The notes under the pieces were generated by a model. It made no database searches and was not told where the DNA came from. It saw only the letters and a program-made list of their open reading frames with translations. This document shows, in pieces, positions 6,727-23,375 of a stretch of 64,000 bases of DNA. Every line of letters begins with the position of its first letter. Position 1 is the first letter of the stretch. The translations under genes and the position numbers were made by a program. The stretch is from Bacilli bacterium (GTDB lineage Bacteria > Bacillota_I > Bacilli_A > RFN20 > CAG-826), in the NCBI GenBank assembly GCA_051872335.1, contig JBJEDT010000025.1:51365-115364 (forward strand), given 5' to 3'.

Positions 6727-7701
6727 ATGGAAGAAAAAGGCTCAAAGAAAAAAAGCGCAATATTCTCAATGCTATTTTCTTTACTATGTGTCTTTTTAGT
6801 AACTATACCTACTTTAACATTTGCATGGTTTAAACAATATATGGATGTAACTAGTCAAACAATTACCATTACTTCTGGTGAATCTGTTGCTTACATTGAA
6901 ATTGAGATTTATACCTATCAAAATGATACAATTAATGGTCCATTAGCATATCATACATCTTTAGATTATGATTTAGATGTTAATTGTACTTCTAACCCTG
7001 ATGAAACTGGTACTGTAAATGTTACTTTTGGTAGTATTGCTGTAAACGAAGCTGATTTAACTAAAGGATATGGTGGTCTAGATAATCCTGACTTCTTTAA
7101 TCCAGATTGTTTACCAGAATTTATGATTGAATTTAGAATTATTAAGGAGTTATTCTCTTCATATGTAAAAAGTTCTGTAACTGTTATAACTAATACAGGC
7201 ACTAATTCTTTCTACGATACAAGTGGTAATGAATCTTCTTCTACATTAACAACACCATTTTTATTTAGACAAAAAATATTTACAAATAACGCTACAGAAG
7301 TTATTGGTTCATGTATTCAAAATAATACAAGTTCTAATACTGATGGTGACAATACAAACGTAGAAAGCATGCGTAACGTTTTGCCAACTGCAATGCCAGC
7401 AATTAGCAGTGAAACAAATTTATTTAATGACCTAGATTCACTTTATAATCAAGGTGCACCCGTTGAAGATGGAGTAAGTTATCCTAAACAACTATATGTT
7501 CCTCAATTTAATAAAAAGAAACCTGGTAGTGCAGACGATGTTGCTTATAGTAAAGCTATTATATATGATGTCTGTCTTGATCCAGCATTAATATTATTTA
7601 CAATGCAAGAGACAAATAAAGGCTCAATCTCAAAAATTATGTCATTTAATTTATCATTACAATTTTCATTTGAATTATCTAACGACCCATTTAGGTCATA
7701 A
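6727..7701 (+). CDS. TasA/camelysin-family secreted protein (SipW-cognate signal peptide)
   Basis: N-terminus …VTIPTLTFAWFKQ… parallels B. subtilis TasA …LVGGGTWAAFND…. The C-terminal LSLQFSFELSN resembles the TasA C-terminal QFSFEATQWNG. Confidence 0.65.
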   Translation: MEEKGSKKKSAIFSMLFSLLCVFLVTIPTLTFAWFKQYMDVTSQTITITSGESVAYIEIEIYTYQNDTINGPLAYHTSLDYDLDVNCTSNPDETGTVNVTFGSIAVNEADLTKGYGGLDNPDFFNPDCLPEFMIEFRIIKELFSSYVKSSVTVITNTGTNSFYDTSGNESSSTLTTPFLFRQKIFTNNATEVIGSCIQNNTSSNTDGDNTNVESMRNVLPTAMPAISSETNLFNDLDSLYNQGAPVEDGVSYPKQLYVPQFNKKKPGSADDVAYSKAIIYDVCLDPALILFTMQETNKGSISKIMSFNLSLQFSFELSNDPFRS

Positions 7702-7745: not shown

Positions 7746-10181
7746 ATGAAAAAAAATACAAATTCAAAAATCTTATTTGCTTTATCATTAATGTTTGCTA
7801 CTTCAGCTTTAGGATTAATTTCTTTTGGGACAATGTGTGCTTTCCAAAATAAAGAACAACAATCTTTTGAATATCAAACAGATATTAAACCTTTAACTTC
7901 TTATTTTGATGGTGGAATAGGAACATTATCTAACCCATACATAATTAGTAGCGAAGAAACTTTTATAAACTTTCAAAAGCTAGTACAACTTGGATGTTTT
8001 ACATATAATACATACTTTAATTTAGGTGCAGATATTACTTTTAGTGATGATACTATTCTAGAACCTATCGGAACCGAAAACTGCCCATTCAATTCTCAAT
8101 TTGATGGTATGGGATATAAATTATCAAACATTAAAGTATCTTCTGTTAACCATGAGGATGTAGGTGTATTTGGGTATGTTGGTTCAGGTTCATATATTAA
8201 AAATTTAATTCTAGATACACCTTCAATTACTTCAACAGGTCCCTCAACAAAGGTTGATAACCCACTTGAAGGAATTGTACCTTCTAGTTCTATTACTACA
8301 CCAACATATACAACTACAAGTGTAACGATGTCTAGTCGTGTTGTTGAAGGGACAGATTCAAATAATTACACAGTATACTTCCGTTCTGCTAATAAAGGTA
8401 TATTAACTGATGATGGTGTTTTACAAACTGCTAATATTACAAATAATAAAAAGTTTGCAATTCATGTAGATGCTATTATTACAACCTCTATTCTAGTTAA
8501 TAATGAACCTATGGTTGTTACTTATGTAGCTGATAGATTCGCTGTGTATATAGAAAATAAAGCTATACTTGAAACTGAAGGCGTTGTAAGCTTATTTGAT
8601 AGGTCCGATGATGGTGATGGAACTTATACAACAAAAGATCCTCATTATTATGAGGATCAAAATGGTGCAAGAGTCTTAGATGATGTTGTATATTTAGGAC
8701 TATTTGTTGGGCATATTGATGGAGAAGCTTCTTATATTGGTGTATATAATGGCACTTTAACAGCTAATACCAGAGAAACTATATCACATTCATCAATAAT
8801 TGGAAAACATAAAGATGATACCTTACTTAATTCTCTTGATAATGATTACTACTATCAAGACATAAATTTTTCAGAAATGATTACTGCCGTCCCTTCATTG
8901 GGTGATACAGGATACGTAAATACTCAAAATTTTAGTGCTTCTACCGGGGTTGGTCATGACACTGATTTTACAACGATTTTTAATAACACAAACACGAATC
9001 TTGAAGATATTGGAATTGAAATTCCAAATGCTTTTAGAATCTACAATTCTTTTGGGGTTTCCCCATTAGATTCAATTAATACACGTCAATTAGATGAAGA
9101 AACAGGCGAAATCTCTACAGAAATAGAGCCTATGGAAGGTATATATCTAAAAGAGGATATTGAAGAATCCATTACATGGAAAACAGTTCAATATAGATTT
9201 TATATTGGTAATTATAGCACAATGCACACAGTTAAAAATTATGTCCTAAATAATACACTTTGGTTATGGGCAATGCAGGAATATTTAGCAAATGGAGATT
9301 CTACAATAAGCGATATTTTAGGTAATTTATTTGATGGAGAAACAACTGTCTACTTAACTTTAAAGATTTCTTATTCAGTTTCAAATTGTGAAGCGGCTAA
9401 AGATACCATATTTAAATTATATTCTGCTGGTTTCTCAACAAAGAGTGTTCCAAACGACACTTATAACAACAAATTGAGCGCAGATAGCATCGACCAATTT
9501 GGACATGCTAATAATTCTAATATTACAAAAAAAACTATTGTAACAGGAACTGATGAATCTGGTAATGATATTACAACGGAAGAATGGCACTTTACAGATA
9601 TGGAAAGTAGTATTGCTCCTGTTGAATATATTGATAGTGATGGCAATATACAAACAAAAGATTTTGATCCATTAATATGTAGTCAAAACACGAGTTATAG
9701 TAATGTTATTCAGTCAAAAACAATATCTGTTGTAGCTAATACAAGTTCATCTAGTAGTTTCTTTAATAGATCAACTTACGCTCCTCTTTTTGGATTAGGT
9801 CTAGAAGGAATTAATGGGACAAATGCACAACTTGATATTTATCGTATAGAAATTCTTATTTCTCACGATCAAGGTAATTTTTCATATTCATTAGATAAAG
9901 TTGATTTCTTATACGATTTAAATGCTACATATGATAGCAGTGCTGCTACTTGGACAGGATGGGCAAAAAAAGAGTCTGGTGTTAAAATTTACTTTATCCT
10001 ACAAGATCTTGAAGATGGAGATACAAATACTAACTTAAATACAGGTGTTGTAATTACATATACACGTTCTAGTGGATATGGTTATAGAGTAACTGCTACA
10101 TATACTGTATTAGGTGATGCATCATATGCCCCTACAAATACAAGTGGTGCTCAAACAGCAACAATTACTGATGGAACATAA
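7746..10181 (+). CDS. Large secreted protein (811 aa), possible beta-helix/GLUG-like adhesin or fibre-associated protein
   Basis: Signal peptide …ISFGTMCAFQN (possibly SipW-type). N-terminal pattern SNPYIIS…YFNLGADITF…PIG…FDGMGYKLSNIKV…GVFGYVGSGSYIKNLIL is typical of parallel beta-helix surface proteins. S/T/N-rich throughout. Confidence 0.45.
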   Translation: MKKNTNSKILFALSLMFATSALGLISFGTMCAFQNKEQQSFEYQTDIKPLTSYFDGGIGTLSNPYIISSEETFINFQKLVQLGCFTYNTYFNLGADITFSDDTILEPIGTENCPFNSQFDGMGYKLSNIKVSSVNHEDVGVFGYVGSGSYIKNLILDTPSITSTGPSTKVDNPLEGIVPSSSITTPTYTTTSVTMSSRVVEGTDSNNYTVYFRSANKGILTDDGVLQTANITNNKKFAIHVDAIITTSILVNNEPMVVTYVADRFAVYIENKAILETEGVVSLFDRSDDGDGTYTTKDPHYYEDQNGARVLDDVVYLGLFVGHIDGEASYIGVYNGTLTANTRETISHSSIIGKHKDDTLLNSLDNDYYYQDINFSEMITAVPSLGDTGYVNTQNFSASTGVGHDTDFTTIFNNTNTNLEDIGIEIPNAFRIYNSFGVSPLDSINTRQLDEETGEISTEIEPMEGIYLKEDIEESITWKTVQYRFYIGNYSTMHTVKNYVLNNTLWLWAMQEYLANGDSTISDILGNLFDGETTVYLTLKISYSVSNCEAAKDTIFKLYSAGFSTKSVPNDTYNNKLSADSIDQFGHANNSNITKKTIVTGTDESGNDITTEEWHFTDMESSIAPVEYIDSDGNIQTKDFDPLICSQNTSYSNVIQSKTISVVANTSSSSSFFNRSTYAPLFGLGLEGINGTNAQLDIYRIEILISHDQGNFSYSLDKVDFLYDLNATYDSSAATWTGWAKKESGVKIYFILQDLEDGDTNTNLNTGVVITYTRSSGYGYRVTATYTVLGDASYAPTNTSGAQTATITDGT

Positions 10182-10278: not shown

Positions 10279-11187
10279 TTAACTAGCAAACAATGATAAT
10301 GCAGTAACTGAAAATGATAATAATTGATAACAGTTAGATGAACCATTTTCTTTATCTTTATAATAATATATATCATTACCAGAACGTCGAGAATAAGTAT
10401 AATATGTATCACTAGCATTTGAGAATTCTATTGTAAAGAATACAACAATTGTTTTTCCACTTAATGACGTTCCGGAAACATAAGATAAGTCAACTCCATC
10501 AAAGTTACTTCCATCTCCTGATTCATTAAATACGTCAGTTAATGAAGTATCTCTATCACTTAATTCATAACCATTTAAGAAATTTAATGCTGAAGTATTC
10601 ATAGTTGCATTATCTTCTTTTAGCATAGCTCCTGAATAAATATTAATAGCTTCTGATAAATATATACCACCTAATACTTCGTCAGTATCTTTATCTACTT
10701 TATACATAGTAAGGACATCTTCCTCAACTAGAGTAGCAGTATAATTTGTTGAAGTATATTTTGTAATAGAAAGACCTGCACGAGATATTTGAGAAGATGA
10801 ACTTATAGTTAATTCAAAAGCATAAGTATATCGTGTATCAGGGAATATATCAGTAATATTCCACAATTCAGATGCAGACTCACTCATTTCAATAAAATCA
10901 GATGAATATGTACAAGTACTTATCTCAGCATAATCTTGATAACCAGTATATTTAGTTATTCCGTCATCATCTGTAGTATAGTTTCCTGAATAATACATTA
11001 ATTTATAGTTTTCAACCGATTCATCAATAGTAATATTAGAATTTCCTAAATCTGCATTTCGATTAACAGTAAACCAAGCGAATGTTGCTGTTGCAGCTGC
11101 TCCAAAAGAAATGAGTAAAACAAAAGCACTAAGTAAAACTTGTTTTAATTTAAACTTATTTAGTTCAAGTTTCATACTTTTGTCCAT
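10279..11187 (-). CDS. TasA/camelysin-family secreted protein (SipW-cognate signal peptide)
   Basis: N-terminus …GAAATATFAWFTVNRN…. The C-terminal region is S/T-rich. Confidence 0.6.
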   Translation of the reverse strand: MDKSMKLELNKFKLKQVLLSAFVLLISFGAAATATFAWFTVNRNADLGNSNITIDESVENYKLMYYSGNYTTDDDGITKYTGYQDYAEISTCTYSSDFIEMSESASELWNITDIFPDTRYTYAFELTISSSSQISRAGLSITKYTSTNYTATLVEEDVLTMYKVDKDTDEVLGGIYLSEAINIYSGAMLKEDNATMNTSALNFLNGYELSDRDTSLTDVFNESGDGSNFDGVDLSYVSGTSLSGKTIVVFFTIEFSNASDTYYTYSRRSGNDIYYYKDKENGSSNCYQLLSFSVTALSLFAS

Positions 11188-11222
11188 CTCCTTTCTTTAT
11201 GTTGCTACAAATTAACTTAATT

Positions 11223-11948
11223 TTATTCAAATGGTTTATTAAAGTCTTGGAATAATAAGTTCAATAATTGTCCGATTTCAGGAGCTTGTTCAACCCCAAC
11301 ACGAACTCTTGATAATAATTGGTGATTGTTACCTACTTCATATGAACAAGCCTTAAAAACAACTAAAGGTATATCATATAAATAACATGCTGCAGCAAAG
11401 CCAGCAGCTTCGGTATCAACTGCAAGAACATTATTAATTTTACTAAAATGTTCTTGAATAGTAACTTTAACATCATCTAAATTAGAATGGAATTTATTTG
11501 ATGAAAGCAAAACACCTTGAACGATACGTTTGTTCTTATTCATACCATTTAAAGCATGAATAGTTTGAACAGTATCAAAATCTGAAGTATAGAACATTGG
11601 AAGTTCAGGTATTTGACCATAACGATATTTACCTAAAGCAAGTAGATCAACATCCATTGCATAAACTCTATCTGCAATAAATAAATCACCTTGGTCAAGG
11701 TTTGGTGAAATTGAAGAAACTGTTCCAATATTTACTACTAAATATGGTTTATATTTTTCAATTAATAATGCTGTAATCATAGCAGCCATTTCTTGTCCAT
11801 ATCCAGTCATGGCACATGCAATTTCTTTACCACCGAAAATTCCAATATAAACATCATAACGATTAGCTATGACTTCTACACGAGGGTCAATAATTCTTTT
11901 TTGAATATACTCGACATCATCTAAACGAGCACCAACAATTAAAATCAT
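11223..11948 (-). CDS. mtnN: MTA/SAH nucleosidase (MtnN/Pfs) family protein, possibly catalytically divergent
   Basis: Collinear with E. coli MtnN (ILIVGARLDDV vs IGIIGAMEEEV; AVDTEAAGFAAACYLYDIPLVVF vs [23 protein letters not shown]). The residue aligned by eye to the catalytic Asp197 (SD) is SY here. Confidence 0.6.
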   Translation of the reverse strand: MILIVGARLDDVEYIQKRIIDPRVEVIANRYDVYIGIFGGKEIACAMTGYGQEMAAMITALLIEKYKPYLVVNIGTVSSISPNLDQGDLFIADRVYAMDVDLLALGKYRYGQIPELPMFYTSDFDTVQTIHALNGMNKNKRIVQGVLLSSNKFHSNLDDVKVTIQEHFSKINNVLAVDTEAAGFAAACYLYDIPLVVFKACSYEVGNNHQLLSRVRVGVEQAPEIGQLLNLLFQDFNKPFE

Positions 11949-11960
11949 TAGTCATCCCTC

Positions 11961-13505
11961 CTATTTCTTACGTTCGAATTCATTATTCTTTAAGAATAAT
12001 TCGAACTCTTCTCTACTTAAAGGTTTTGAATAATAATAACCTTGAATGAAGTCACATTCTGAAGCCTTACAAATAGCAACTTGTTTAGCAGTTTGAATAC
12101 CTTCAGCAACAACTTTCATATCGAGAGCCTTTGCCATCGCAATAGTAGTTTTTGCAATATCACGTGACTTCTTATCAACTTCGACAGAATCAAAGAAAGA
12201 TTTATCAATCTTTAAAGTATCCATCGGTAATTTACGTAAGTTAGATAATGATGAATATCCAGTACCAAAATCATCAACAGCTAACTTAATGTGTAAAGCT
12301 TTTAATTGTTTAATAATAGATAATAAATATAGCATATCTCTACGAGCACTTGATTCAGTTAATTCAAGTTCAAGTTGTAAAGGAGATACCCCAAATTTTT
12401 CCATCGTTTCAGTTAAGAATTGAATAAGGTCAGTACGATAAATACCATTTCTTGAAAGGTTAACTGAAACATTAACTAAACGAGAACCTCTTTTTTTCCA
12501 GTATGCTAAGTCTTGGCAAACATGTTCAAACATATATCTATCAATTTCAATAATTTGATCATTACGTTCAGCAAATGGAATAAATGTTGCTGGGTTAACA
12601 ATACCTTTTGTTGGGTGTCTCCAACGAATAAGAGCTTCAGCACCAGTAAATTTTTCAGCTTTTAAATCAAATTTAGGTTGATAGAAAACTTCAAACTCAT
12701 GATTCTTAATTGCGTTTTCAATATCGTGAGCAAGTTCAAGTTCATCAATACTCTTTTGAATCATTGATTCTTCAAAAATAACAATGTTACCTTCTAGAGG
12801 CATATACATAGAGTTACGAGCAACTTCACAACGAGTAACAATATCATCAATAGATAATTTTTTATCATCTTCACATAAACATGTTTTATATGTTAATGTT
12901 GTAGGAACTCCTTTTTTATGAACATTAGAGTTAATAGCTTGATATAAAGCATCCATTTCTTTAATAATGGTTTTAGCATCATCAGCTTCCATATAAATTA
13001 AGAAAGCACCAGATGATCTTAAACCATATAATACGTTGTTAGCATTAACTTTGTAACGACCAACAATCGTTTCAGCAGCACAACGTGTCATTGCACGTGA
13101 AACATCTAAAGATGCTGTTGTAACACCACTACCGACAACATCAGAAGGCTTATCTAAATCAAGAGTTCCAATATAAGTAAATCTTCTATTTTTAATATTT
13201 CTTCTTTTTTCAACACCTAAATGAAAGTAGTTTTCATTATAAATATTATAATTACGATCGTAATAAGCAAGGTGATATTCACGAGATTCAGCAGCCCTTA
13301 CACGAACAGAACGTGCTGTGATTAACAAACCTAAAGCAATTAATATGCCAAGGAAAGAGCCACCTATATAGTAGTAATATGTTTGATCTAGTGGATGTCT
13401 TAAGAAAAACCATACTAATACACCAACACCAGCTGCAAAGAATAAATATCCAAAAATATTAAGTAAAATAATTTTTGTTTTAGCTTTTTTCATATTACTT
13501 ATCAC
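11961..13505 (-). CDS. Membrane-anchored degenerate-GGDEF/EAL c-di-GMP phosphodiesterase
   Basis: Two N-terminal TM helices. EAL-domain motifs EVFYQPK…GAEALIRW…, a DDFGTGYSS-type stretch and QG.Y are present. No intact GGDEF motif. The start overlaps the upstream sipW-like stop by 11 bp. Confidence 0.7.
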   Translation of the reverse strand: MISNMKKAKTKIILLNIFGYLFFAAGVGVLVWFFLRHPLDQTYYYYIGGSFLGILIALGLLITARSVRVRAAESREYHLAYYDRNYNIYNENYFHLGVEKRRNIKNRRFTYIGTLDLDKPSDVVGSGVTTASLDVSRAMTRCAAETIVGRYKVNANNVLYGLRSSGAFLIYMEADDAKTIIKEMDALYQAINSNVHKKGVPTTLTYKTCLCEDDKKLSIDDIVTRCEVARNSMYMPLEGNIVIFEESMIQKSIDELELAHDIENAIKNHEFEVFYQPKFDLKAEKFTGAEALIRWRHPTKGIVNPATFIPFAERNDQIIEIDRYMFEHVCQDLAYWKKRGSRLVNVSVNLSRNGIYRTDLIQFLTETMEKFGVSPLQLELELTESSARRDMLYLLSIIKQLKALHIKLAVDDFGTGYSSLSNLRKLPMDTLKIDKSFFDSVEVDKKSRDIAKTTIAMAKALDMKVVAEGIQTAKQVAICKASECDFIQGYYYSKPLSREEFELFLKNNEFERKK

Positions 13506-14262
13506 CTTCCCTTTCTTCTTTATCTTTTAAGTTTTCGTCTTTATTTTCTTTTTTTAATTCATCAAGAATTTGATTCTTCATTTCTTGTTTTAGTCTTTCC
13601 ATTTCTTCTTCGTGAGTCTCAAGACCTTCTTGTTTTCTTTTCTTTTCCATCTCATTTTCAACATGTACTAAACGTGCTTGTTTAATAAAATCAATAATGG
13701 AAACAATAAGAACATATCCTCCAGGAATCATTATTAGTAAAAATGAGACCAATGGTTTAGAAATAAATGAATAAACTACACCAAGTGAATAGGAATTTTT
13801 AACAACTTTACCAATAAGATAGTTACTATTAATAAAGTCATGTGGTTTTCCTTCACAACCACTTGTTCCACAAGATGAAGCTTCCATATTATCACCAAAA
13901 CATTCTAGTGTATATGTACCATCCTCATTTGCAGATATACCAACTAATCGATGAGTTACAATTTTATCATCGGATGTTCGATAAAATGTAATAATATCAC
14001 CTTCAACAATTATATTACCTTCTTCATCTACTTGTTTGGCAACTAATGTCGAAGGATCTACTTCTTTAACAATTACCATAGAATCAACTTTTAAAGTTGG
14101 CTCCATAGAATCAGTATAGACAATCAAAAATGATGTTTTACCAATTTGTGGTACTCCATAATTTCCTTGTCTTGATGTAAGTGAAATAATATTAATACCA
14201 AAGAAAAGGACTACAAAAACTGATAATAAAATTGATGCAATAATTTTAAGTTTCTTTTTCAT
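13495..14262 (-). CDS. sipW: SipW-type (archaeal/ER-type) signal peptidase I with C-terminal TM anchor and K/E-rich tail
   Basis: N-terminal TM, then catalytic-Ser motif YTDSMEPTLKVDSMVIV (SMEP, as in SipW). A second TM lies near residue 170, followed by a 60-aa K/E/D-rich tail. Confidence 0.7.
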   Translation of the reverse strand: MKKKLKIIASILLSVFVVLFFGINIISLTSRQGNYGVPQIGKTSFLIVYTDSMEPTLKVDSMVIVKEVDPSTLVAKQVDEEGNIIVEGDIITFYRTSDDKIVTHRLVGISANEDGTYTLECFGDNMEASSCGTSGCEGKPHDFINSNYLIGKVVKNSYSLGVVYSFISKPLVSFLLIMIPGGYVLIVSIIDFIKQARLVHVENEMEKKRKQEGLETHEEEMERLKQEMKNQILDELKKENKDENLKDKEEREGDK

Positions 14263-14282
14263 CAGTTTCTCCTTTCCTCATT

Positions 14283-16412
14283 TTATGCGTTATTGTTGTT
14301 ATCGTCAGAATATTCAAAGTCGAAGTCATCATCATCAAAAGATTCTTCATCTTCCTCTTCTTCAAATTGTTGATCAACAATTTTCTTAGCTTCTTCTTCG
14401 TTTTCAATGTAATCGCTGTTATCTTCTATTTCTTCTTCATTAGAATTATCATCTTCATTATTTTCTTCATTAATTTCTTCTTGTTCTAATAATGTAGATT
14501 CGTTGTCTTCTTCTAAAGAAGTAGAAGTTTCTAAAGTTTCAGATGATTCTTCTTGATTATCGATATTATTATCAATATCCTCTGCATAAGTAAAATCATC
14601 GTCTTCTTCATCAAATTCATCAAGTCCAGCGTTACGACGATATGCTTCTTGAGCCATACGCAATGCTTCTAGTTTTGCTTGAGCTTTAGCAATTAATTCA
14701 TTACGTAAAGATTGTTGACGACGTCTTTCTTCTTCAAGTAACATTTCACGTTGTCTTTGTTCACGTTCAAGTTTTGCTTGTTCACGTGCAGCAATCTTAT
14801 CCTCAATAGCTTTTTTACGAGCTTCTTCCTTAGCCTTAATTTCTTCCATTCGTGCTCTACGACTTTCTTCCTCGATTTTAAACATTTCTTCAGCTTCCTC
14901 AAGGAGTCGCTTTTCTTCTTCCTCTTCTTCAGTTAAGCCAGAAGGACGAAGAACTTTTAATTCGGCTAAACGATCTTGCTCAGCTTGACGTTTTGCATTT
15001 TCACGTGCACGATTTAATGCATCTCTTTCTGCATCAAGAATTGCCTTTTCACGAGCTTTCTCTCGAGCAATTCTTTCTTCTTCAAGACGTTTTGCTTCTG
15101 CTTTTTCAAAAGCAATACGTGCTCTTTCTTCTGCAGCTTTTTGTTCTGCACGCATTTTTGCAATACGCTCTTCTTCTTTTTGCTTTGCAAGAGCTCTTTG
15201 TTTTTCTCTTTCTAAACGTTTTTGTTCAAGCACTTTGAGTTTTGCTAATCGTGCTTGTTCTTGTTTCTTTCTTAGATTTCTCATTTTAGGAGTTAAGTTT
15301 CTAGAAATTTCACTGCTTCCAGTTCCACCAACATAACGACCCTCAATATCAAATTTAGAATCCAAGAAATCTTTATCAATTACTCTATTACCAATCTTTG
15401 GTTGAATACGATAAGCCTTAACTTTTGCAAGGTCTATCATACGAGTCTTGTTTGTTTGTAAGGATATAATTCCTCCAAACATATTTTTTTGTAATTCATC
15501 AACATAAGGTTCATCAAATTTAGCTGATGTTTCCTTAACATGAATTGAAATACCTAACTTATCGTATGACTCCATAAATTTCCATAAAATATGAGCTTTT
15601 TTATAGTTAGGGTTTTTAACAATAATGTTTGTTAACATAATAGGTGAGTTAACAGGTTTACAATCTTTTAATTGTTCCATAAACCAGCTTTGTGAAAGGT
15701 AAGCTAATCTACGACGAAGTAATGCAATCTTTTTTAAAAGCAATTCATTAGCTTCCCTATTACCTTCATCAGCTGAAGGAACAGAAATTTTAACTTTAGT
15801 TTCATATTCATATAAAACTTCACCAACTTGAACTTTGTTTTTAACGACAACTGCATCTGAGTCACGTGTATCAGCGTGTTTTGTAATATAATCATATCTT
15901 TTATTAATGAAGTTTAAAGCACGTTCAATACATGTTTTAATAAAACGGTTTTCATAAATTCCGTATTCATCTTCTGCAGTAACAGTAAGAATTTTATTAG
16001 GAATAATATTGCCATCTTTATCAATATCTTTAATATATTGAGTATGAGATGCTAAGTGAATAACTGATTCATTTGTAATTTTACGAGCTAATTCAATTGG
16101 TGTAATATAACGTTCAAGACGAATATGCTTTTTTGGATCTTTAGAAATGTTTTCTAAAGCAGGAATAGCATTTTCAAAGTGTTGAATCCAAAGTAGATCA
16201 TATTTTTTTGTCTCTGTACGAGATAATTGTGAAATTTCTTGATCTGGAGAATTTCTAATAGCAACTAAGAATTCACGTGAAGTTGGGTCACTATCAACAA
16301 CTTCATTAACTGCTTCAATATAGCGTTTATGAACATCATCAAATGGAGAAGGTCCTAGATTACTTAAATCAACAGGAGATTCTACTTGTTTGTTCTTTTC
16401 TTCATCTGCCAT
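14283..16412 (-). CDS. McrB-partner protein: unknown N-domain (about 370 aa) + roughly 230-aa K/E/R/A coiled coil + poly-acidic C-terminal tail
   Basis: Located 86 bp downstream of the McrB-like gene (the McrC position). N-domain contains DEYGIYENRFIK. Residues about 380-600 are REKAREKA…/AKRQAEQDRLAELK-type heptads. The C-terminus is …EEEEDEESFDDDDFDFEYSDDNNNNA. No PD-(D/E)xK nuclease motif was recognised. Confidence 0.6.
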   Translation of the reverse strand: MADEEKNKQVESPVDLSNLGPSPFDDVHKRYIEAVNEVVDSDPTSREFLVAIRNSPDQEISQLSRTETKKYDLLWIQHFENAIPALENISKDPKKHIRLERYITPIELARKITNESVIHLASHTQYIKDIDKDGNIIPNKILTVTAEDEYGIYENRFIKTCIERALNFINKRYDYITKHADTRDSDAVVVKNKVQVGEVLYEYETKVKISVPSADEGNREANELLLKKIALLRRRLAYLSQSWFMEQLKDCKPVNSPIMLTNIIVKNPNYKKAHILWKFMESYDKLGISIHVKETSAKFDEPYVDELQKNMFGGIISLQTNKTRMIDLAKVKAYRIQPKIGNRVIDKDFLDSKFDIEGRYVGGTGSSEISRNLTPKMRNLRKKQEQARLAKLKVLEQKRLEREKQRALAKQKEEERIAKMRAEQKAAEERARIAFEKAEAKRLEEERIAREKAREKAILDAERDALNRARENAKRQAEQDRLAELKVLRPSGLTEEEEEEKRLLEEAEEMFKIEEESRRARMEEIKAKEEARKKAIEDKIAAREQAKLEREQRQREMLLEEERRRQQSLRNELIAKAQAKLEALRMAQEAYRRNAGLDEFDEEDDDFTYAEDIDNNIDNQEESSETLETSTSLEEDNESTLLEQEEINEENNEDDNSNEEEIEDNSDYIENEEEAKKIVDQQFEEEEDEESFDDDDFDFEYSDDNNNNA

Positions 16413-16435
16413 TTTATAATCCTCCTTTCTTGAAA

Positions 16436-16498
16436 TTCATAATATATATAATAATGAAAATATAAATATATATAATATAAATAATATATATATAATAA
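16436..16498. repeat. (TA)n / ATA-rich simple-sequence tract in the McrB-like/partner intergenic region
   Basis: aatatatataataatgaaaatataaatatatataatataaataatatatatataataatt, seen directly. Confidence 0.7.
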
Positions 16499-18034
16499 TT
16501 AGCTTCCCACTTTCATTAAGTTTTCAATAAACTTCTTAGATTCAGGGAATGTGTTTTTACCAAATAAATGGTCAAGTTGTTCTATTAATTGACGTAATTC
16601 GTCTTTTAAGAAACCAATATTTAAGGATTCAAATTTCTTCAAAATCTTTGTTGAGAAGATATAGTCAAATCCATCAATTTCAGTACCACCACATGCAACG
16701 TACATTGGGACGAATAACTTTAATTGTTTCATAATACGGTTACCGAAAGCCAACTTGAAGTTTTTAATAACGAAGTCATCAAGTTTAGCAAATTTTTCAA
16801 TAATTTTATTTGAAACAGGATAGTTAGTTAATGCTTCTTGATATAGCTTATGTAAATATTCATAAGAAATATTTACTGGATCAGTAAAGTCTGCTTCAAA
16901 AGCAACACCTTTATTATTTAAGAAAATACAGATAGCACGGTCGTAAACCTTATCTGAAATAGTAAATGTAGAGTCATCGTTGTTAGCTGTTCCAATAAAC
17001 CATAGGTTTTGTGGAATTAATAATTTACCATCAGTAACATGTGCAGGGTCAGTTTTTGGATCTGGTGAAGAAATAAGTTCAACAATCCATTCATTAACGT
17101 TAGGCATTTCCATAATGGACAAGAATTCTGCAAAATAATACTCAATACGAGCTAAGTTCATTTCGTCGAGGACGATAACGTTACAGTCTTCACGATATGT
17201 ACATTCATAAATAATCTTTAAGAATTCAGTTTCATTAAATTTCTTTGTAAATTCGTTGTAATATCCGATAAGTTCTGAACGGTCACGCCAAGATGGTTGA
17301 ACAGGACAAATCTTTGTATCATTTTGGAAGAATTTTCCTAGTGCATATGGTAAGGAGGTTTTACCAGTACCAGAAATACCTTCTAGAATTAATAGTTTAG
17401 ATGCACCTAAACCAGCAAAGAAAGCACGAATAACTTTTAGTTCATAATATAGACCAAGTTGAGATGCAGCAAAGTTTCTAAAACGTTCACATAATTGTTC
17501 TAGAGATAGTTTATCAGCATCGTCCATTCGAACTGTCATATCAAGAGATTTATATTTAGCATCAACAAGAGCTAATTTTGTAAAACGACATTCAGTATTT
17601 GGACCTTTATCTTCTTCTTCCTCTTCTTCCTCTTCTTCAGGTAACTTACCACCTAAAGCATTAACTTTTAAGTTGAGAATTTTATTTCTTTCTTCTATAG
17701 CTTTATATAGTTCATAATTCAAACGTTCAACTTGTTGCATAAGTTCTTGTTGCTCTTGAACTTTTTTGCTAAAGCGGAATAATTTTCTAAATAGTAAAAA
17801 GAATAAGAAAATAATACCACCTATTAAAGCAGCAATAATGAGATAATAAATAACAAATAAAATCCATCCACCAGCACCGAATCCTGGTTTATATAGAATT
17901 AATAAATCGTTATAATCTCTAAAATTTTGACCGACTTCAGACCATGGATCTACAAATGTTAATTTGAGGAATCTTACAAGGTCTTGTATAAATAGTTGCC
18001 ACATGGCAGCTACATATTGGAAAAAGTCATTCAT
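16499..18034 (-). CDS. Membrane-anchored McrB-like AAA+ (AAA_5) GTPase
   Basis: One TM helix (GWILFVIYYLIIAALIGGIIFLFFLLF), a coiled coil and an E9 tract, then a McrB-type NTPase. Motifs are Walker A LEGISGTGKTSL, VIVLDEMNLARIEYYFAEFLSIME (compare McrB IFIIDEINRANLSKVFGEVMMLME) and WFIGTANNDDSTF (compare McrB IIGLMNTADRS). Confidence 0.7.
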   Translation of the reverse strand: MNDFFQYVAAMWQLFIQDLVRFLKLTFVDPWSEVGQNFRDYNDLLILYKPGFGAGGWILFVIYYLIIAALIGGIIFLFFLLFRKLFRFSKKVQEQQELMQQVERLNYELYKAIEERNKILNLKVNALGGKLPEEEEEEEEEDKGPNTECRFTKLALVDAKYKSLDMTVRMDDADKLSLEQLCERFRNFAASQLGLYYELKVIRAFFAGLGASKLLILEGISGTGKTSLPYALGKFFQNDTKICPVQPSWRDRSELIGYYNEFTKKFNETEFLKIIYECTYREDCNVIVLDEMNLARIEYYFAEFLSIMEMPNVNEWIVELISSPDPKTDPAHVTDGKLLIPQNLWFIGTANNDDSTFTISDKVYDRAICIFLNNKGVAFEADFTDPVNISYEYLHKLYQEALTNYPVSNKIIEKFAKLDDFVIKNFKLAFGNRIMKQLKLFVPMYVACGGTEIDGFDYIFSTKILKKFESLNIGFLKDELRQLIEQLDHLFGKNTFPESKKFIENLMKVGS

Positions 18035-18081
18035 ATTTAACCCTCCTAAATTTCAAGTACTCAAATTAGAAAAAATGATAA

Positions 18082-18864
18082 TTACTTTGTGCTAGATTGA
18101 TTATCCTCAATTCCTAACTCTTTTAATATTTCAGCTCTCATAGCTTCTTTTTCTTTTGCTCTTTCTTCTTCAGAAATAGCTGTTTTTTCTTTAGCTAACT
18201 CCTTAGCGTTTTCTTCTTTTGTTTCTATGATTGTAACTATTAACTTATATCCTTTATATAAGAATAGACAAAACATAGGAACTAAAACACATAATGCAAA
18301 TCCCCATGCATAAGGAGTATCTAATAAAAAGCCATAGACAGCTCCAATACCAGGTACTCGTGTTCCGTTATATACCCCTATAACGGATGAATAAGTGACT
18401 GTTTGTGTTGCTAGTACATCCCCATCTTCGACATAAGTACCTTTTGTGACGAAGAGAGCCCCCTTGTTTTGAATTTCAATAACTTGGTGGGTAACAATTT
18501 CACTTTGTCCATCACCATCAATATCATAAAAGAATGATATAATAGTTTCATTTTCAATAATTTCAATACTTGGTTTCAAATATTGAGTTGCATCATCGTA
18601 TCTAAATGATACTTTTTCAACAACAATCAAATCCCCTTTATTGATTGTGCCTTTCATTGAGCTCGTTTGAACTCTTAAATAAGACTTATTATTTATAGTA
18701 GGAACCCCATAATTATTCTTTGAAGTAAGAGAAACCGCAACAAGAAACACTGATAGTAATACCATTACTACCGTGAAAACATTAATGACAATATTTATAA
18801 TTTTAGAAAACAAAGATTCTTTTTCATCTTTAACATTTTCATTTTGTACTTTTTGTTTTTTCAT
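18082..18864 (-). CDS. sipW: SipW-type signal peptidase I, paralog 2, with C-terminal TM and K/E-rich tail
   Basis: TM, then QTSSMKGTINKGDLIVVEKV (S-M motif), a C-terminal TM (WGFALCVLVPMFCLFLY) and a tail KEENAKELAKEKTAISEEERAKEKEAMRAEILKEL. Confidence 0.65.
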   Translation of the reverse strand: MKKQKVQNENVKDEKESLFSKIINIVINVFTVVMVLLSVFLVAVSLTSKNNYGVPTINNKSYLRVQTSSMKGTINKGDLIVVEKVSFRYDDATQYLKPSIEIIENETIISFFYDIDGDGQSEIVTHQVIEIQNKGALFVTKGTYVEDGDVLATQTVTYSSVIGVYNGTRVPGIGAVYGFLLDTPYAWGFALCVLVPMFCLFLYKGYKLIVTIIETKEENAKELAKEKTAISEEERAKEKEAMRAEILKELGIEDNQSSTK

Positions 18865-18901
18865 TTACTTCCTCGTTCAAATAATAGTTAAGTTTTGTTT
18901 T

Positions 18902-20197
18902 TTAGTGTCCCCATTCATCTTGGCTGTTTACATCTCTACCATTCAAAATAATATTTGCAATAAAACTCGAATCAGACGAATCACTGCTGCAATCTAAATC
19001 CCATCCTTCTGCCCACATAGTGACAATTAATTTTTTAGCTTCTCTACGTGTAACATAAGTTAAAGCATTATCTATTCGTTTATATGCGTTAGTAGATGAA
19101 GATGTTGTTCTTTTTTTATCTAAAGCATCTTCTTCATAAAGAATTAGATTTTCCCCATTAACAACTTTAGATTGTTCAACATCTATAGGATTTGCATTTC
19201 CCCATGAATTTGCAAAGAAACCACCTACAAGTTCATGCTTTTCAAGTCCTGATGCACGAGCATTTTCTGAATATACTAGATTTGCACCATTTAGCAAACT
19301 ATATCTACCATAAAGAATTTCATTCTTTCTATATTCAGTTGCCCCATCATCAATAGAAGGATATACATCATAATATCCATCCTGAGGATCAGCATCTAAA
19401 CGACCATAATATTTTGTTTTTTGAAGAATAGAATTTTCATATGTTGGATTTCCATCAAATATATTATAAGTAAATCTATTGGTTCTATTTCCATCATCAT
19501 CTGTGTAATCTAATTCACTAAAAAACCCAATTCTAATATAGTTACTAACTTTATTTAATCGTTCTTCAGTATAACTAGAAACTGCTGCTTTTTCAGCGTT
19601 TTTTTCAGTATCTGGAAGAATAGATATATTTGAAGATAAAAAGACAAATACAGGAACATTTGTTGCTCTAACATAGAACTCAAATTCATAGTAATAATCT
19701 TTTACTTCGTTTCGTGTAACAGTAGTTCTACCACCAATATCAGTTAATGTTGGCATTTTAGTATAAACAGGCCTTGTTGATTCTAAACTAGTGGCATTAT
19801 TAAGCCATTCATCATAATAAGCATTTGAAATTGGTTGAAGTTTTGTACCTTCATCATATTGACCAAAATCAGTTAATACATCTGTATTAATATGAAATTC
19901 AGTATCAGTAAAATAATATATATCATCAACCCACTCACCAGTATCATCACTATATTTTTCTTTTAGTGAAGATAAGGATTCAGCAGGTGCTTTTAAACCA
20001 AGTTGCAAAACTCCCTCATCATCATAAATGGTATAAGATAAGTTATCAACCTGCAAAGCATTTGAAAATTCATACCACGCAACTGTAACAGTTACAAGAG
20101 ATGCTACAGCAAGAACAAACGAAGAGAAAGCTGCCATTACTTTATAATTTATTTTCTTATTCATATTGGTAGCTTCCTCCTTTCGTTTAATTTTCAA
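18902..20197 (-). CDS. TasA/camelysin-family secreted protein (SipW-cognate signal peptide)
   Basis: N-terminus …VASLVTVTVAWYEFSN…. C-terminal motif VTMWAEGWDLDCSSD. Confidence 0.6.
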   Translation of the reverse strand: MKIKRKEEATNMNKKINYKVMAAFSSFVLAVASLVTVTVAWYEFSNALQVDNLSYTIYDDEGVLQLGLKAPAESLSSLKEKYSDDTGEWVDDIYYFTDTEFHINTDVLTDFGQYDEGTKLQPISNAYYDEWLNNATSLESTRPVYTKMPTLTDIGGRTTVTRNEVKDYYYEFEFYVRATNVPVFVFLSSNISILPDTEKNAEKAAVSSYTEERLNKVSNYIRIGFFSELDYTDDDGNRTNRFTYNIFDGNPTYENSILQKTKYYGRLDADPQDGYYDVYPSIDDGATEYRKNEILYGRYSLLNGANLVYSENARASGLEKHELVGGFFANSWGNANPIDVEQSKVVNGENLILYEEDALDKKRTTSSSTNAYKRIDNALTYVTRREAKKLIVTMWAEGWDLDCSSDSSDSSFIANIILNGRDVNSQDEWGH

Positions 20198-20244
20198 AGT
20201 GTAGTATCGTTAAAATATTATCTACCTAATAAATGAATTTTTTA

Positions 20245-21840
20245 TTAATTACCTAGACCTGGAGCATGGAAACAAATACTACCTGTGAATGGTGCTTTGT
20301 TGTCATTTACAGAATTTGTATCCCAACCTTCTGTCCAAATCTTAATTGTTACTTCAGCATAACCTCTAGAATCAGTAATTGCTAAAGGATGATTTTTTGA
20401 TGCATCTTCGTGATATACGAAGTAATCAATACCATGTGCATCTTGTGTTTTAGCTTTGACTTTTTCACTGTATTTGAATGAAATTGATTCATATGCAGTT
20501 CCATCAGTCTTAACAAATTTACCAACGAATGCATTTTTATTAGCACCAATAACTGGTGTAGTAATATCAGATCCACCATTATCAACTACAACACTATATG
20601 TGTCATCATATAATGTATCGCCAGGTAATTCTAAATCTTCATGTTCACCATACCATTTATGGTCAAATCTCTTATAAGTTCCATCTGTTAAGTTATCAAC
20701 AACAGAACTATCAATTGATACGAAATCATCATTTTCTGTATCCCATGCAAATGCATGTCTTGTTGTAACATCATCAACAGTTGTATCGTAGTAATATACT
20801 TTTCTTGTATCTACTGTACCTTTTGCAGCTTCTAATCCATCTGCATCAGTAACATTAACAAAGTAAGTTGATTTATCTGAATCAGAAATGTTTGTAGTGT
20901 TGTAATCCCAAACACCATCAGCATCTAAATCTAGATATCCACCAACATTAGTTGAAACTTTATCATAACTAAAGTTAGATGGTGAATAAATATAATTGTT
21001 ATAATCAGATTCAAATGAAACACGTAAAGTTTTAACAACGTTATGTGTTACAGTTTGATTACCTTGTGTACCACCAATAAAATATGTACTTGCGTTATCT
21101 AAATAAATTGGTTGGTTAGCTACACCATTTGTATTAAATACTAAAGTGAAAGACATATACTTTTCTTTAATTGCTTTAATACCATCATTATAAGCTGTTA
21201 AATCAAGTGCATATTGAGCTAATTCAGCTTCTGAAGCATCATCACCAGGATATACAGGAGCAGTGTAAATTGCTGTATTACTATCATAATTTCCAGTAGC
21301 ACCTGCCAAAGCATTTCTATCTGGAATATCATAAAGTAATACATCATCATTTTTATCTAAACCAGTTCCTAATGCTAAAGATTGATCATTAAAATGACGT
21401 GAAGTAACTGGAGCTATAAAGTTCTCAGATTCTCTATCGGTATAACCATCATTGTAGTAAACAGCACGTAAATGACTTGCTTTGATTTGGTTACCTTTTT
21501 CAGTAAAGTTACTACCTTCTTGATAGTTCCAATAAATGTCGTTAATTTCAACTTCAGTATTTCCACCATCATAAGTAGGAATATCTTCATCACCAACTGC
21601 TTCAACTTTGAATTCATCTCCATTGGTATCACCAAATTGAGCAATTAATGCTTTAGCACCTTCAATAGTGTGTGGTTTAATACCAATAGTCAATGAACCA
21701 TCAATTTTAGCTGTTGTACCTGAGATTGTTGCTGTACCAGTATTTGATACAACGTACCAAGCAAATGTACCACCAACTAAGCAAAGTGTTGCTGCGCCAA
21801 ATGATGCAACCGATAATCCTAATTTCTTAGTATTCTTCAC
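20245..21840 (-). CDS. TasA/camelysin-family secreted protein (SipW-cognate signal peptide), 531 aa
   Basis: N-terminus MKNTKKLGLSVASFGAATLCLVGGTFAWYVVSN is nearly superimposable on TasA MKKKLSLGVASAALGLALVGGGTWAAFND. C-terminal TIKIWTEGWDTNSVND. Confidence 0.7.
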   Translation of the reverse strand: MKNTKKLGLSVASFGAATLCLVGGTFAWYVVSNTGTATISGTTAKIDGSLTIGIKPHTIEGAKALIAQFGDTNGDEFKVEAVGDEDIPTYDGGNTEVEINDIYWNYQEGSNFTEKGNQIKASHLRAVYYNDGYTDRESENFIAPVTSRHFNDQSLALGTGLDKNDDVLLYDIPDRNALAGATGNYDSNTAIYTAPVYPGDDASEAELAQYALDLTAYNDGIKAIKEKYMSFTLVFNTNGVANQPIYLDNASTYFIGGTQGNQTVTHNVVKTLRVSFESDYNNYIYSPSNFSYDKVSTNVGGYLDLDADGVWDYNTTNISDSDKSTYFVNVTDADGLEAAKGTVDTRKVYYYDTTVDDVTTRHAFAWDTENDDFVSIDSSVVDNLTDGTYKRFDHKWYGEHEDLELPGDTLYDDTYSVVVDNGGSDITTPVIGANKNAFVGKFVKTDGTAYESISFKYSEKVKAKTQDAHGIDYFVYHEDASKNHPLAITDSRGYAEVTIKIWTEGWDTNSVNDNKAPFTGSICFHAPGLGN

Positions 21841-23011
21841 TATCGTTTACCTCCTTTTTAAAATTTTTATTCATATTAGTTAAATTTTTCATATCAATAT
21901 TTGTAAAGTTTTTATTTTCGTTAAGTACTATCATTCCTGATTCTTCGTTCATTAAACCGGCTGTTTCTTCTTCCGTATCGAATTCATCACGAAGTGCAAT
22001 ATACATTGAAAGTTGTATACCAGCACCACTAGGAACATTCCCTGTAGCTTCTAAATCATATCCATCAATCCATACAATAATTGTGAAACGAATTGTTTCT
22101 TGCCCTTCGATGTAATCTTCATTTGATTTTAAAATATAATCACTATCATAGAATGGTTCAGCAAATCCTTTATTGATTTCCTTTTCACCAGTACATATTA
22201 GAAGACCATCATCAGTTTTTACGTATCTAGAAATACATTCTCTAGATTCATTATCACTAGTTTCAGTTTTTACAGGTTCAGATCTAACTTTTGCATATGT
22301 TACCATATCATGAGTTTGATCTTCTTCATGAATCAATCCATCACTTCCATATATAACAGAGTTCTTGTAGAATCGTAATCTAATAACATTATCAATTGTG
22401 ATATTAGATTCAGTTGAAACAGTCATATCGTCAATTTTGATATGAAAGTCATAACCTGCTCTTCTACTACCAACATTGCGAATATAGAAAGTATATGCTA
22501 AGAAAGAGCCACCATAAATTTCAGAAGTTCCATTATGTGATCCACCTTGAATTGGATCAATAATATCTTCGTCAGGAAGTTCATCAGCAGCCATTGCATA
22601 AGTTGATCTAGATGACTCAGCTCTTAAACGAGTTGTCTTGTTTTCAAAATAGCCATCTTCGCTCATAGTTAAAGCAAGTTGGTCACGTTCAAGTTGAACT
22701 GTTAAGTTACCAACAAGTGAACTTAAATATGCAATAGTAATGATAATACAAAGTATAACTACAGAAAGAGATAAGAAAAAGTTTACAAACATCTTTTTTC
22801 TGTAACGTGAAGCTACAGGATCTTTGTAATTTTTGAACTTCTCATAAGGGTTATCAATTTCAACGAGTCTTTTCGACTTCTTTTTAGGTTGTTCTTCAGC
22901 CTTGTCTTTATCGTCAGTTTTAGATGAAGGATCAATGTTTTCACTTTCCTCATCCAAAATAGATTTTAGTTCATCTGAAGATAACTCTTCTAATTGATCC
23001 TTTTTAGCCAT
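21827..23011 (-). CDS. Membrane-tethered TasA-like protein: charged N-terminal cytoplasmic tail + single TM + TasA-like ectodomain
   Basis: Residues 1-75 are K/D/E-rich, then a TM FFLSLSVVILCIIITIAYLSS (a degenerate T.AY motif). C-terminal RFTIIVWIDGYDLEATG matches the family IW.EGWD motif. Confidence 0.55.
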   Translation of the reverse strand: MAKKDQLEELSSDELKSILDEESENIDPSSKTDDKDKAEEQPKKKSKRLVEIDNPYEKFKNYKDPVASRYRKKMFVNFFLSLSVVILCIIITIAYLSSLVGNLTVQLERDQLALTMSEDGYFENKTTRLRAESSRSTYAMAADELPDEDIIDPIQGGSHNGTSEIYGGSFLAYTFYIRNVGSRRAGYDFHIKIDDMTVSTESNITIDNVIRLRFYKNSVIYGSDGLIHEEDQTHDMVTYAKVRSEPVKTETSDNESRECISRYVKTDDGLLICTGEKEINKGFAEPFYDSDYILKSNEDYIEGQETIRFTIIVWIDGYDLEATGNVPSGAGIQLSMYIALRDEFDTEEETAGLMNEESGMIVLNENKNFTNIDMKNLTNMNKNFKKEVNDSEEY

Positions 23012-23326: not shown

Positions 23327-23359
23327 CATTAAAAAAAGGTACCAAAATCGGTACCTTTT
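23327..23359 (-). terminator. Rho-independent terminator after the sipW paralog 3
   Basis: aaaaggtacc-aaaatc-ggtacctttt hairpin with U7 on the minus-strand transcript, 17 bp past the stop at 23376. Confidence 0.7.
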
Positions 23360-23375
23360 AATAACATTTTAGTGT

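Follow-up and report, generated by a model that had tools for sequence, protein, structure and literature searches.

The DNA analysed here (the window) is a stretch of 64,000 nucleotides (nt) from a Bacilli bacterium (assembly GCA_051872335.1, contig JBJEDT010000025.1, positions 51,365 to 115,364 of the forward strand). It contains a gene for a 709-amino acid (aa) protein of highly biased composition, which stands directly after a gene for a McrB-like AAA+ NTPase and among genes for SipW-like signal peptidases, TasA-like secreted proteins, and cyclic di-GMP (c-di-GMP) signalling proteins (Table 1). The evidence makes it very probable that the 709-aa protein is a McrC-type subunit whose partner is this membrane-anchored NTPase. 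With less assurance, we favour the view that the two proteins form a McrBC-derived NTPase recruited to the assembly of TasA-like fibres (the "pilus"), in the class that has been named CoCoPALM.

The 709-aa protein and its NTPase partner

A reading made earlier from the sequence alone (the sequence-only reading) divided the 709-aa open reading frame (ORF) into a globular N-domain, a charged stretch, and an acidic end, and both the ORF call and the composition bear this out. Residues 1 to 375 have a globular composition (K+R 0.15, D+E 0.15, hydrophobic residues 34%), residues 376 to 600 contain K+R 0.28, D+E 0.24, Ala 0.16, and a single Pro, and residues 606 to 709 contain K+R 0.02, D+E 0.45, and 14% Asn, with a net charge of -45. 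The motifs quoted by that reading are all found: REKAREKA (~450-457), EAKRLEEERIAREKAREKAILDAERDALNRARENAKRQAEQDRLAELK (439-486), EEARKKAIEDKIAAREQAKLEREQRQREM (529-557), LRMAQEAYRRNA (584-595), and the acidic C-terminus. Tandem DNA repeats were considered as the source of the repeated peptide motifs and rejected; only units of 12-21 nt at ~2 copies are present. An AlphaFold2 (AF2) model of the protein, built on a 14-sequence alignment, consists of a folded N-domain, a low-confidence linker, helices at residues 375-487 and 496-595 (~73-82 in pLDDT, the predicted local distance difference test), and then disorder.

The N-domain had been called simply globular, which is correct as far as it goes; what was missed is that it is a DUF2357 domain and that it has a McrB-like partner. 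In McrC, DUF2357 forms the N-terminal part, which binds McrB and activates it (Bell et al. 2024). When the N-domain is scanned alone against Pfam, DUF2357 (PF09823) is matched with an E value of 2.8e-8 and 33.8 bits (cut-off 23.3), and all 14 aligned family members score above the curated cut-off, with a best E of 2e-14. A homolog search with the N-domain returned 24 proteins at 26-90% identity, several of which carry PF09823 in their precomputed annotation. A scan of the full-length 709-aa protein against Pfam and PADLOC gave no match, evidently because the low-complexity charged tail masked that of DUF2357. The lesson for method is to scan proteins of strongly biased composition one domain at a time.

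The AF2 model of the N-domain (pLDDT 75.6) contains a helical bundle and long beta-hairpins, which agrees with the finger domain of McrC, described as a "helical bundle and beta-sheet stalk" (Niu et al. 2020). Residues invariant in the family include K140, Y153-E154-N155-R156, R172, T261, and N267. Residues 346-709 match no Pfam domain, and past residue 330 the model contains helices and disorder only. Judged from the Pfam scan and the model, then, the PD-(D/E)xK nuclease of canonical McrC is absent, and ~220 residues of predicted charged helix and a disordered acidic tail stand in its place.

Relatives were collected by a scan of species-representative genomes, 143 of which have one, and 84 related loci (given L-numbers) were compared. 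At essentially every locus whose contig permits it, a ~510-aa McrB-like gene is followed 0-130 nt downstream by the DUF2357 gene, and the McrB-like genes at related loci are 45-62% identical. Read from its N-terminus, the partner in the window consists of a single membrane span (~50-89), a coiled coil built of heptads (~88-130), an E9 linker, and the AAA+ NTPase. The coiled coil has clean heptads (residues 88-130, with 0.62 hydrophobic at a/d in the best frame). The NTPase has the Walker A motif GISGTGKTS, the Walker B motif LDEMNLAR, and the signature GTANNDDS, and hhalign with E. coli McrB (94.5%, E 8e-8) aligns both Walker motifs (with DEMNLAR in Walker B) and the signature N..D. A match to the PADLOC model PDC-M26A (5e-38) also speaks for a McrB-like NTPase. 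No DNA-binding or modified-base reader domain was found at the N-terminus of the partner, where the membrane span, coiled coil, and poly-Glu linker are located.

Several results weigh against this identification. An hhalign comparison of the N-domain profile with E. coli McrC was not significant, E. coli McrC falls in another Pfam family (PF10117) than DUF2357, and the Pfam AAA_5 match of the partner lies just under the cut-off (19-20 bits versus 22). Because of the first two of these, the stimulatory Arg/Lys of McrC (Lys157 in E. coli) was not mapped; invariant K140, R156 (in YENR), and R172 are candidate counterparts. Searches of PDB chains with the single sequence and with a profile returned nothing relevant, Foldseek with the full-length model against PDB was uninformative (TM-scores <=0.1), and an NCBIfam scan gave no match for the N-domain and none for the TasA-like proteins.

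Comparison with known systems narrows the assignment. Like canonical McrC (E. coli, T. gammatolerans; 6hz4, 6ut5), the 709-aa protein has a finger domain of helical bundle and beta stalk and is encoded directly after McrB. Canonical McrBC, however, has a PD-(D/E)xK nuclease in McrC and a DNA reader in McrB, and its McrC stimulates hydrolysis through Arg263 in T. gammatolerans or Lys157 in E. coli; the window pair has neither nuclease nor reader, and its NTPase is anchored in the membrane. Without a nuclease, the 709-aa protein is not a canonical McrC. It also resembles CnuC of the CoCoNuT systems (Bell et al. 2024), a branch of McrBC in which McrB and McrC homologs carry coiled-coil or helical fusions and the McrC nuclease is often lost. 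CoCoNuTs, however, always occur with HEPN or another nuclease and often with RNA-binding domains, none of which is present at the window locus, and in some CnuC proteins a coiled coil is inserted within DUF2357, whereas the helix of the window protein is C-terminal. Lacking an associated nuclease, the locus is not a CoCoNuT.

By its DUF2357 N-domain and the McrB-like NTPase encoded upstream, the locus falls into the CoCoPALM class. This class was named in a few sentences, with its analysis deferred, and was described as a GTPase fused to an FtsB-like transmembrane and coiled-coil domain, with descriptors that include a shortened GTPase signature, NxxD becoming NxD followed by a second D (Bell et al. 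2024). Shared with the class are a nuclease-less DUF2357 protein with a long helical extension, an adjoining McrB-like NTPase with a span and a coiled coil, genes of the signal-peptidase family (here three SipW-like paralogs), and helical or coiled-coil stretches on both partners, with those on the McrC side here lacking heptad periodicity. Two descriptors, FtsB homology and the NxD motif, could not be confirmed for the window locus. Residues 1-165 of the McrB-like protein match no FtsB/DivIC family in Pfam at E values up to 10. The signature, which reads GTAN[N/R]DDS at three loci, fits "NxD then second D" as N-N-D-D and also aligns without gaps to E. coli NTAD as NxxD. The publication is silent on an acidic tail, single-alpha-helix-like statistics, a SipW tail motif, TasA-type substrates, and c-di-GMP genes, and its supplementary text holds no CoCoPALM list. 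Literature searches (McrB with TasA; SipW, TasA, and Acholeplasma; CoCoPALM) found no follow-up study; within the library searched, no paper after Bell et al. uses the CoCoPALM name, and none ties McrB to TasA or SipW.

The 86-nt spacer from the stop of the McrB-like gene to the start of the 709-aa gene (16439-16499) is an almost pure (TA)n / ATAATATAT repeat. Such a spacer could affect transcript stability or translational coupling.

The charged arm and the acidic tail

Relatives of the 709-aa protein are labelled as Bacilli metagenome-assembled genomes (MAGs), Acholeplasmataceae, Anaeroplasmataceae, Erysipelotrichaceae, Clostridia, Peloplasma aerotolerans, Acholeplasma equifetale, and others, the closest being a Bacilli MAG (97%). 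Clustered at 50% identity, the matches of an exhaustive profile search number 2,424 at E <=1e-3, of which 1,016 reach E <=1e-30; among the best 150, the N-domain lies at or near the N-terminus in nearly all, and lengths range from ~290 to 1,375 aa. Two family members carry unexpected labels: L025, on a 1013-nt contig labelled Candidatus Woesearchaeota, and P0013, from an Anaeramoba ignava transcriptome. Mis-binning or a bacterial symbiont or contaminant is more likely here than true archaeal or eukaryotic genes.

A C-terminal extension of 130-1257 aa is present at all of the 84 loci, and every one of the 77 complete homologs analysed has a charged helix (64-333 aa, ~50% charged). The parts of the protein differ in how fast they change. 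In L005, identity to the window protein is 97% for the N-domain, 98% for helix 1, 94% for helix 2, and 71% for the acidic tail, with all regions other than the tail at 94-100%. The corresponding values are 77%, 68%, 47%, and 36% in L006 and 72%, 66%, and 42% in P0003, in which the acidic tail is essentially absent, and in a further relative with an N-domain identity of 92%, the tail is only 35% identical. Helix 1 aligns without gaps with L005, L006, and P0003 and, judged from these alignments, is evolving almost as slowly as the globular domain. The sequence-only reading had named absence or drift of the charged region in orthologs as the finding that would speak against it. For the helix, neither is seen; for the acidic tail both largely are, given identities of 71% and 35-36%, its absence from P0003, and its replacement elsewhere. 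From the homolog comparison, the helix appears to be a selected, universal feature, and the tail a variable module, often with short repeats.

The helical arm is predicted by AF2 to consist of helices of 113 and 100 residues separated by a hinge. It had been described as almost pure charged heptads, a label that the periodicity analysis does not uphold. Hydrophobic periodicity at 3.5 residues was not found in residues 376-487 (z -0.8) or 494-596 (z -0.15), helix 1 has none at 3.5, 3.6, 3.67, or 7 residues (z <0), and bulky hydrophobics fill just 0.25-0.5 of the a/d positions in the best frame. Pairs of opposite charge at i/i+3 and i/i+4 exceed those of shuffled sequences (z 2.3 and 3.5 for the two helices). 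With the 3.5-residue periodicity missing and salt-bridge pairs in excess, the statistics of the arm favour a single alpha-helix over a coiled coil in the window's clade. An antiparallel hairpin of helix 1 on helix 2, whose lengths are nearly equal, was considered and found no support (charge complementarity r -0.01, controls with a standard deviation of 0.17).

Single alpha-helix domains of the ER/K type are known, for example, in myosin VI, myosin X, and caldesmon. The arm shares with them a long unbroken predicted helix rich in E, K, and R and the excess of i/i+3 and i/i+4 pairs, and helix 1 shares the lack of a hydrophobic seam. It differs from them in its bacterial context and in two properties that tell against a single alpha-helix: it has more Ala (16%) and more hydrophobics (20%), making it less pure than textbook examples, and helix 2 is weakly amphipathic, with some 3.67-residue periodicity. 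The latter signal (z 4.4 before correction) fails correction for 24 tests; with Ala counted as hydrophobic, helix 2 also has a 3.5-residue signal of z 2.3.

The properties of helix 2 would fit a different arrangement, in which the helices form a two-chain coiled coil that dimerises the protein and bridges two McrB-like hexamers, taking over the task of the lost nuclease domain, through which canonical McrBC dimerises into a tetradecamer. Dimerisation of McrC does join two McrB hexamers (Niu et al. 2020), Bell et al. call such regions coiled coils, and many Acholeplasmataceae homologs have hydrophobic periodicity at 3.5 or 3.67 residues (z 2-5). For the window protein, we nevertheless regard this arrangement as unlikely, since helix 1 has no periodicity at any of the repeats, the a/d positions are poorly filled, the enriched salt-bridge pairs favour a single helix, and the window's clade (L005-L009) gives z values of only -1.1 to +0.6 at 3.5 residues. 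The single-helix reading also suits the earlier suggestion that the charged helix is a spacer or tether, which fits the two long predicted helices, their statistics, the presence of a charged helix in every complete homolog analysed, and the slow evolution of helix 1.

The acidic tail had been called D/E-only, but D and E make up just 45% of it, and Asn (14%), Ser, Thr, Ile, Leu, Phe, and Tyr are also present. Within the predicted disorder AF2 places a lone short helix (667-687), and the tail carries the acidic-aromatic motifs DDDFTY (601-609) and DDDDFDF (693-699). The tail has been proposed to be a DNA mimic or a binder of polycations or metals. Its composition, a net charge of -45 over 104 residues, is what suggests this, and nothing else was found in its support: there is no DNA-binding component with which to compete, since in the partner a membrane anchor takes the place of the DNA reader of canonical McrB, and the acidic character is not conserved in the family. 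We therefore consider this proposal highly improbable. An acidic end is found at just ~7 of 80 loci, and most homologs end basic, which, because tail charge is not conserved, excludes any general polyanion-dependent role.

It is also conceivable, although doubtful, that the tail serves no specific function: it would be an appendix of low-complexity sequence subject to drift, acting, if at all, as an entropic bristle or a solubility tag, and the helix and N-domain alone would matter. The tail is the fastest-evolving part of the protein (71%, 35%, and 36% identity where the N-domain has 97%, 92%, and 77%), is missing from P0003 with its 72% identical N-domain, is acidic in few loci, and is predicted to be disordered. 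What counts against drift is that DDDFTY(A/I)E and DDDDFDF(E/A)Y persist in the window protein, L005, L006, and P0001, and that unrelated lineages have independently built repeated acidic-amphipathic tail motifs: L068 has ~six copies of QAEDDEFLAALDAIPEA, and L082 has DDLSDEELEALLxxNG(M/L) three times. Tails elsewhere in the family are basic, Pro-rich, or repeat-bearing. Units of DPKELLRRRREAIRQKALA lie between Asp/Glu runs in L038, L051, and L072, E/P repeats are found in L036, and AKKP repeats resembling histone H1 are found in L033. The 1596-aa DUF2357 protein of L012, an uncultured Erysipelotrichaceae MAG, has four globular repeats of ~100 aa (residues ~700-1596) that contain …FQEKYAEIDPDIKAKVDGLREYL…LLFRLRSDLSYRRAISLIDELM… and are separated by Pro/Glu-rich linkers; these repeats match nothing in Pfam. 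The recurrence of repeated tail motifs in several lineages suggests that they may act as multivalent short linear motifs.

The surrounding genes

Table 1. Positions of the 709-aa gene, its parts, and the neighbouring genes in the window
Feature	Positions	Strand	Remarks
Whole ORF, 709 aa: McrC-like (DUF2357) protein with charged helical arm and acidic tail	14283-16412	minus	ATG start
Shine-Dalgarno sequence AGGAGG of the 709-aa ORF	16421-16426	minus	Strong; 8 nt 5' of the start codon (16412)
Globular N-domain, residues 23-330: helical bundle and long beta-hairpin "stalk"	15423-16346	minus	AF2 model
Pfam PF09823 (DUF2357, McrC N-terminal domain) match, residues 65-183	15864-16220	minus	E 2.8e-8
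Low-confidence linker, residues 331-374	15291-15422	minus	pLDDT <50 over 321-373
Predicted helix 1, residues 375-487	14952-15290	minus	Net charge +12; basic start (+8 in first 28 residues)
Hinge, residues 488-495: LRPSGLT, then E6 run	14928-14951	minus	Kept in L005, L006, P0001, P0003
Predicted helix 2, residues 496-595	14628-14927	minus	Almost neutral; weak hydrophobic periodicity at 3.67 residues; conserved less well than helix 1
Acidic, predicted disordered tail, residues 596-709	14286-14627	minus	Net charge -45; lineage-specific; fast-evolving
McrB-like partner, 511 aa	16499-18034	minus	Directly upstream of 709-aa gene
SipW-like signal peptidase, 260 aa, two membrane spans and cytoplasmic tail	18082-18864	minus	Directly upstream of McrB-like gene
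SipW tail motif EKEAMRAEILKEL, residues 238-250 of the 260-aa paralog	18115-18153	minus	
SipW-like signal peptidase, 255 aa, charged cytoplasmic tail (191-255)	13495-14262	minus	Directly downstream of 709-aa gene
Third SipW-like signal peptidase, 271 aa, charged tail (229-271)	23376-24191	minus	
Membrane protein, 394 aa: charged cytoplasmic N-tail (7-73), one span, extracytoplasmic domain	21827-23011	minus	
TasA/camelysin-like secreted protein, 531 aa, signal motif GGTFAWYV	20245-21840	minus	Weak Pfam Peptidase_M73 match, E 0.0017
Secreted protein, 431 aa, TasA-type signal motif VTVAWYE	18902-20197	minus	
Secreted protein, 331 aa, TasA-type signal motif TATYAWFT	24252-25247	minus	
Secreted protein, 302 aa, TasA-type signal motif ATATFAWFT	10279-11187	minus	
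Membrane EAL-domain protein (c-di-GMP phosphodiesterase type)	11961-13505	minus	Position kept in L003/L004
Membrane GGDEF-EAL protein, 1008 aa	25719-28745	minus	Upstream edge of cluster; position kept in L001 and L003

The three SipW-like paralogs match the NCBIfam SipW model (E 1e-10 to 1e-14) and TIGR02228 and are of the archaeal type. The signal peptides of four secreted proteins end in the TasA/CalY-like sequence G-T-(F/Y)-A-W-(F/Y), and an aromatic P2' residue is a feature of TasA/CalY-type signal peptides (PMC10269814). Such motifs are found at 58 of the 84 loci, in 83 ORFs on the same strand versus 1 on the opposite strand, and SipW-like ORFs flank the McrB/McrC-like pair at related loci. 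The TasA-like assignment is based on these signal motifs and the one weak Peptidase_M73 match.

A SipW-like peptidase gene is found beside genes for secreted fibre proteins in the tapA-sipW-tasA operon of B. subtilis and with CalY/camelysin in B. cereus. Like these operons, the window has an archaeal-type SipW-like peptidase gene next to secreted proteins whose signals end in G-T-(F/Y/W)-A-x-(F/Y). The Bacillus operons, however, have no McrB/McrC-like pair, and the SipW-like proteins of the window have longer tails, one with a conserved motif.

The charge pattern reported earlier is real by composition in the tails of the three SipW-like proteins, in the N-tail of the 394-aa protein, and in the E9 linker of the McrB-like protein, and among the SipW-like proteins of related loci charged tails are common. 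Of 78 such ORFs with a detectable C-terminal span, 72 have a cytoplasmic tail of at least 30 aa (median 44 aa, ~52% charged), which runs ~30-50 residues past the end of the NCBIfam SipW model. On the paralog encoded directly upstream of McrB, the tail carries the sharply conserved motif E[KR]E[KR][IM]Rxx[IL]LxE[LM], which is present in 50 ORFs at related loci (for example, 7720-8385 of L022 and 4120-4893 of L034), where shuffling of the tails leads one to expect 0.005. Neither of the window's other two SipW paralogs carries it, nor do the McrB- and McrC-like proteins. By this sequence conservation, the motif is the best current candidate for a docking site of the NTPase pair. The conserved tails and their motif thus lend real but indirect support to the candidate network of interactions on the cytoplasmic face that the sequence-only reading had drawn from charge pattern.

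A strong terminator-like hairpin with an 11-bp stem followed by a T run (23334-23359, minus strand) separates the third SipW-like gene from the 394-aa gene, and the cluster may therefore consist of two transcription units. Further proteins with GGDEF and/or EAL domains are encoded at 48157-50268 and 52396-54498 (minus strand), giving, with those at 11961-13505 and 25719-28745, at least four in 64 kb. Genes for c-di-GMP signalling are unusually dense around the fibre locus. Two ORFs on the plus strand beside the cluster (6727-7701, 324 aa, and 7746-10181, 811 aa) have no Pfam match at E <=1e-5. At 33282-34715 (minus strand), unrelated to the cluster, lies a gene whose 477-aa product combines Schlafen AlbA_2, HATPase_c_4, and Fic-like C-terminal domains and resembles a putative transcriptional regulator or defence-type protein. 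The remainder of the window contains housekeeping genes (EPSP-synthase family, pseudouridine synthase, MgtE, AdhE) and more GGDEF genes and includes no defence island.

This setting bears on whether the pair serves anti-phage defence as a nuclease-less derivative of Type IV restriction, in which helix and tail would be a sensor or scaffold and the fibre genes bystanders or related to phage receptors. The pair descends from McrBC, the locus lies in the clade that contains the CoCoNuT systems, serine recombinases are found ~6 kb downstream in L003/L004, and the McrB-like protein matches the PADLOC candidate defence model PDC-M26A (5e-38). That match, however, covers the AAA+ core alone (192-317). 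Furthermore, no nuclease or other effector was found in the 709-aa protein or its neighbours (those from 10279 to 28745 were searched for nuclease families), the surroundings are housekeeping and c-di-GMP genes rather than a defence island, and genomes labelled Bacilli, Acholeplasmataceae, Anaeroplasmataceae, Erysipelotrichaceae, and Clostridia retain the gene order TasA-like, SipW, McrB, McrC. A role in defence is accordingly quite improbable in our estimate, and recruitment of the pair to fibre assembly is preferred.

A proposed model for the pair at the membrane

How the NTPase would be coupled to the membrane and fibre machinery can be proposed tentatively, by analogy with McrBC. In the McrBC structures, one McrC finger passes through the pore of a McrB hexamer, which is asymmetric, and by way of the conserved Arg/Lys it stimulates hydrolysis at a single site at a time; the C-terminal domain of McrC lies "atop" the ring, near whose top the density for the McrB N-terminal domains is also seen (Niu et al. 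2020). In the same way, the finger and stalk of one copy of the 709-aa protein would occupy the central pore of a hexamer of the McrB-like protein and stimulate NTP hydrolysis, and the ring would hang from the membrane by six N-terminal anchors. Because the McrC C-terminal domain shares a face with the McrB N-termini, which here are embedded in the membrane, the charged arm should emerge between ring and membrane. This gap would also house the six poly-Glu linkers, the coiled coils of the McrB-like proteins, and the cytoplasmic tails of the SipW-like proteins, so placed that the basic start of the arm (+8 in 28 residues) would lie beside the six poly-Glu linkers and the anionic membrane surface.

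Fully extended as alpha-helix (0.15 nm per residue), the two helices of the arm would measure ~17 nm and ~15 nm. The arm, resembling a single alpha-helix, could then serve as a semi-rigid spacer, and the tail as a multivalent, lineage-tuned element for docking or repulsion. Together, they may form an adaptor or tether that couples or gates the NTPase relative to the machinery that processes and polymerises TasA-like subunits. The GGDEF and EAL genes flanking the cluster suggest that this process may be under c-di-GMP control.

To our knowledge, descriptions of TasA-family fibres to date have them assemble outside the cell, with no cytoplasmic motor dedicated to the task. A more speculative and rather unlikely extension of the model is that the pair, instead of serving defence, is the cytoplasmic engine or gate of a hitherto unrecognised NTP-driven machine that assembles TasA-type donor-strand fibres in Bacillota and the wall-less Mycoplasmatota. 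In such an engine, the finger would turn or step within the membrane-tethered hexamer, and the charged single-helix arm would relay its state to the conserved tails of SipW-like peptidases dedicated to the system.

The odd composition of the 709-aa protein is thus explained as the standard architecture of a large family (~1,000 clusters at 50% identity, E <=1e-30) that was named in 2024. To what was known of this family, the present analysis adds the domain assignment that composition had masked, a single-alpha-helix-like helix that appears to be under selection, a lineage-specific acidic tail, and a SipW tail motif by which the proposed network of cytoplasmic interactions can be tested. Further handles for testing are the candidate catalytic residues K140, R156, and R172 and the culturable carriers Acholeplasma equifetale ATCC 29724, Peloplasma aerotolerans M4Ah, and Mycoplasmatota strain zrk2 (loci L077, L022, and L071). 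The locus is a clear example of a motor from a restriction enzyme that has lost both the nuclease and the DNA reader and appears wired instead to genes of the membrane and of fibre assembly.

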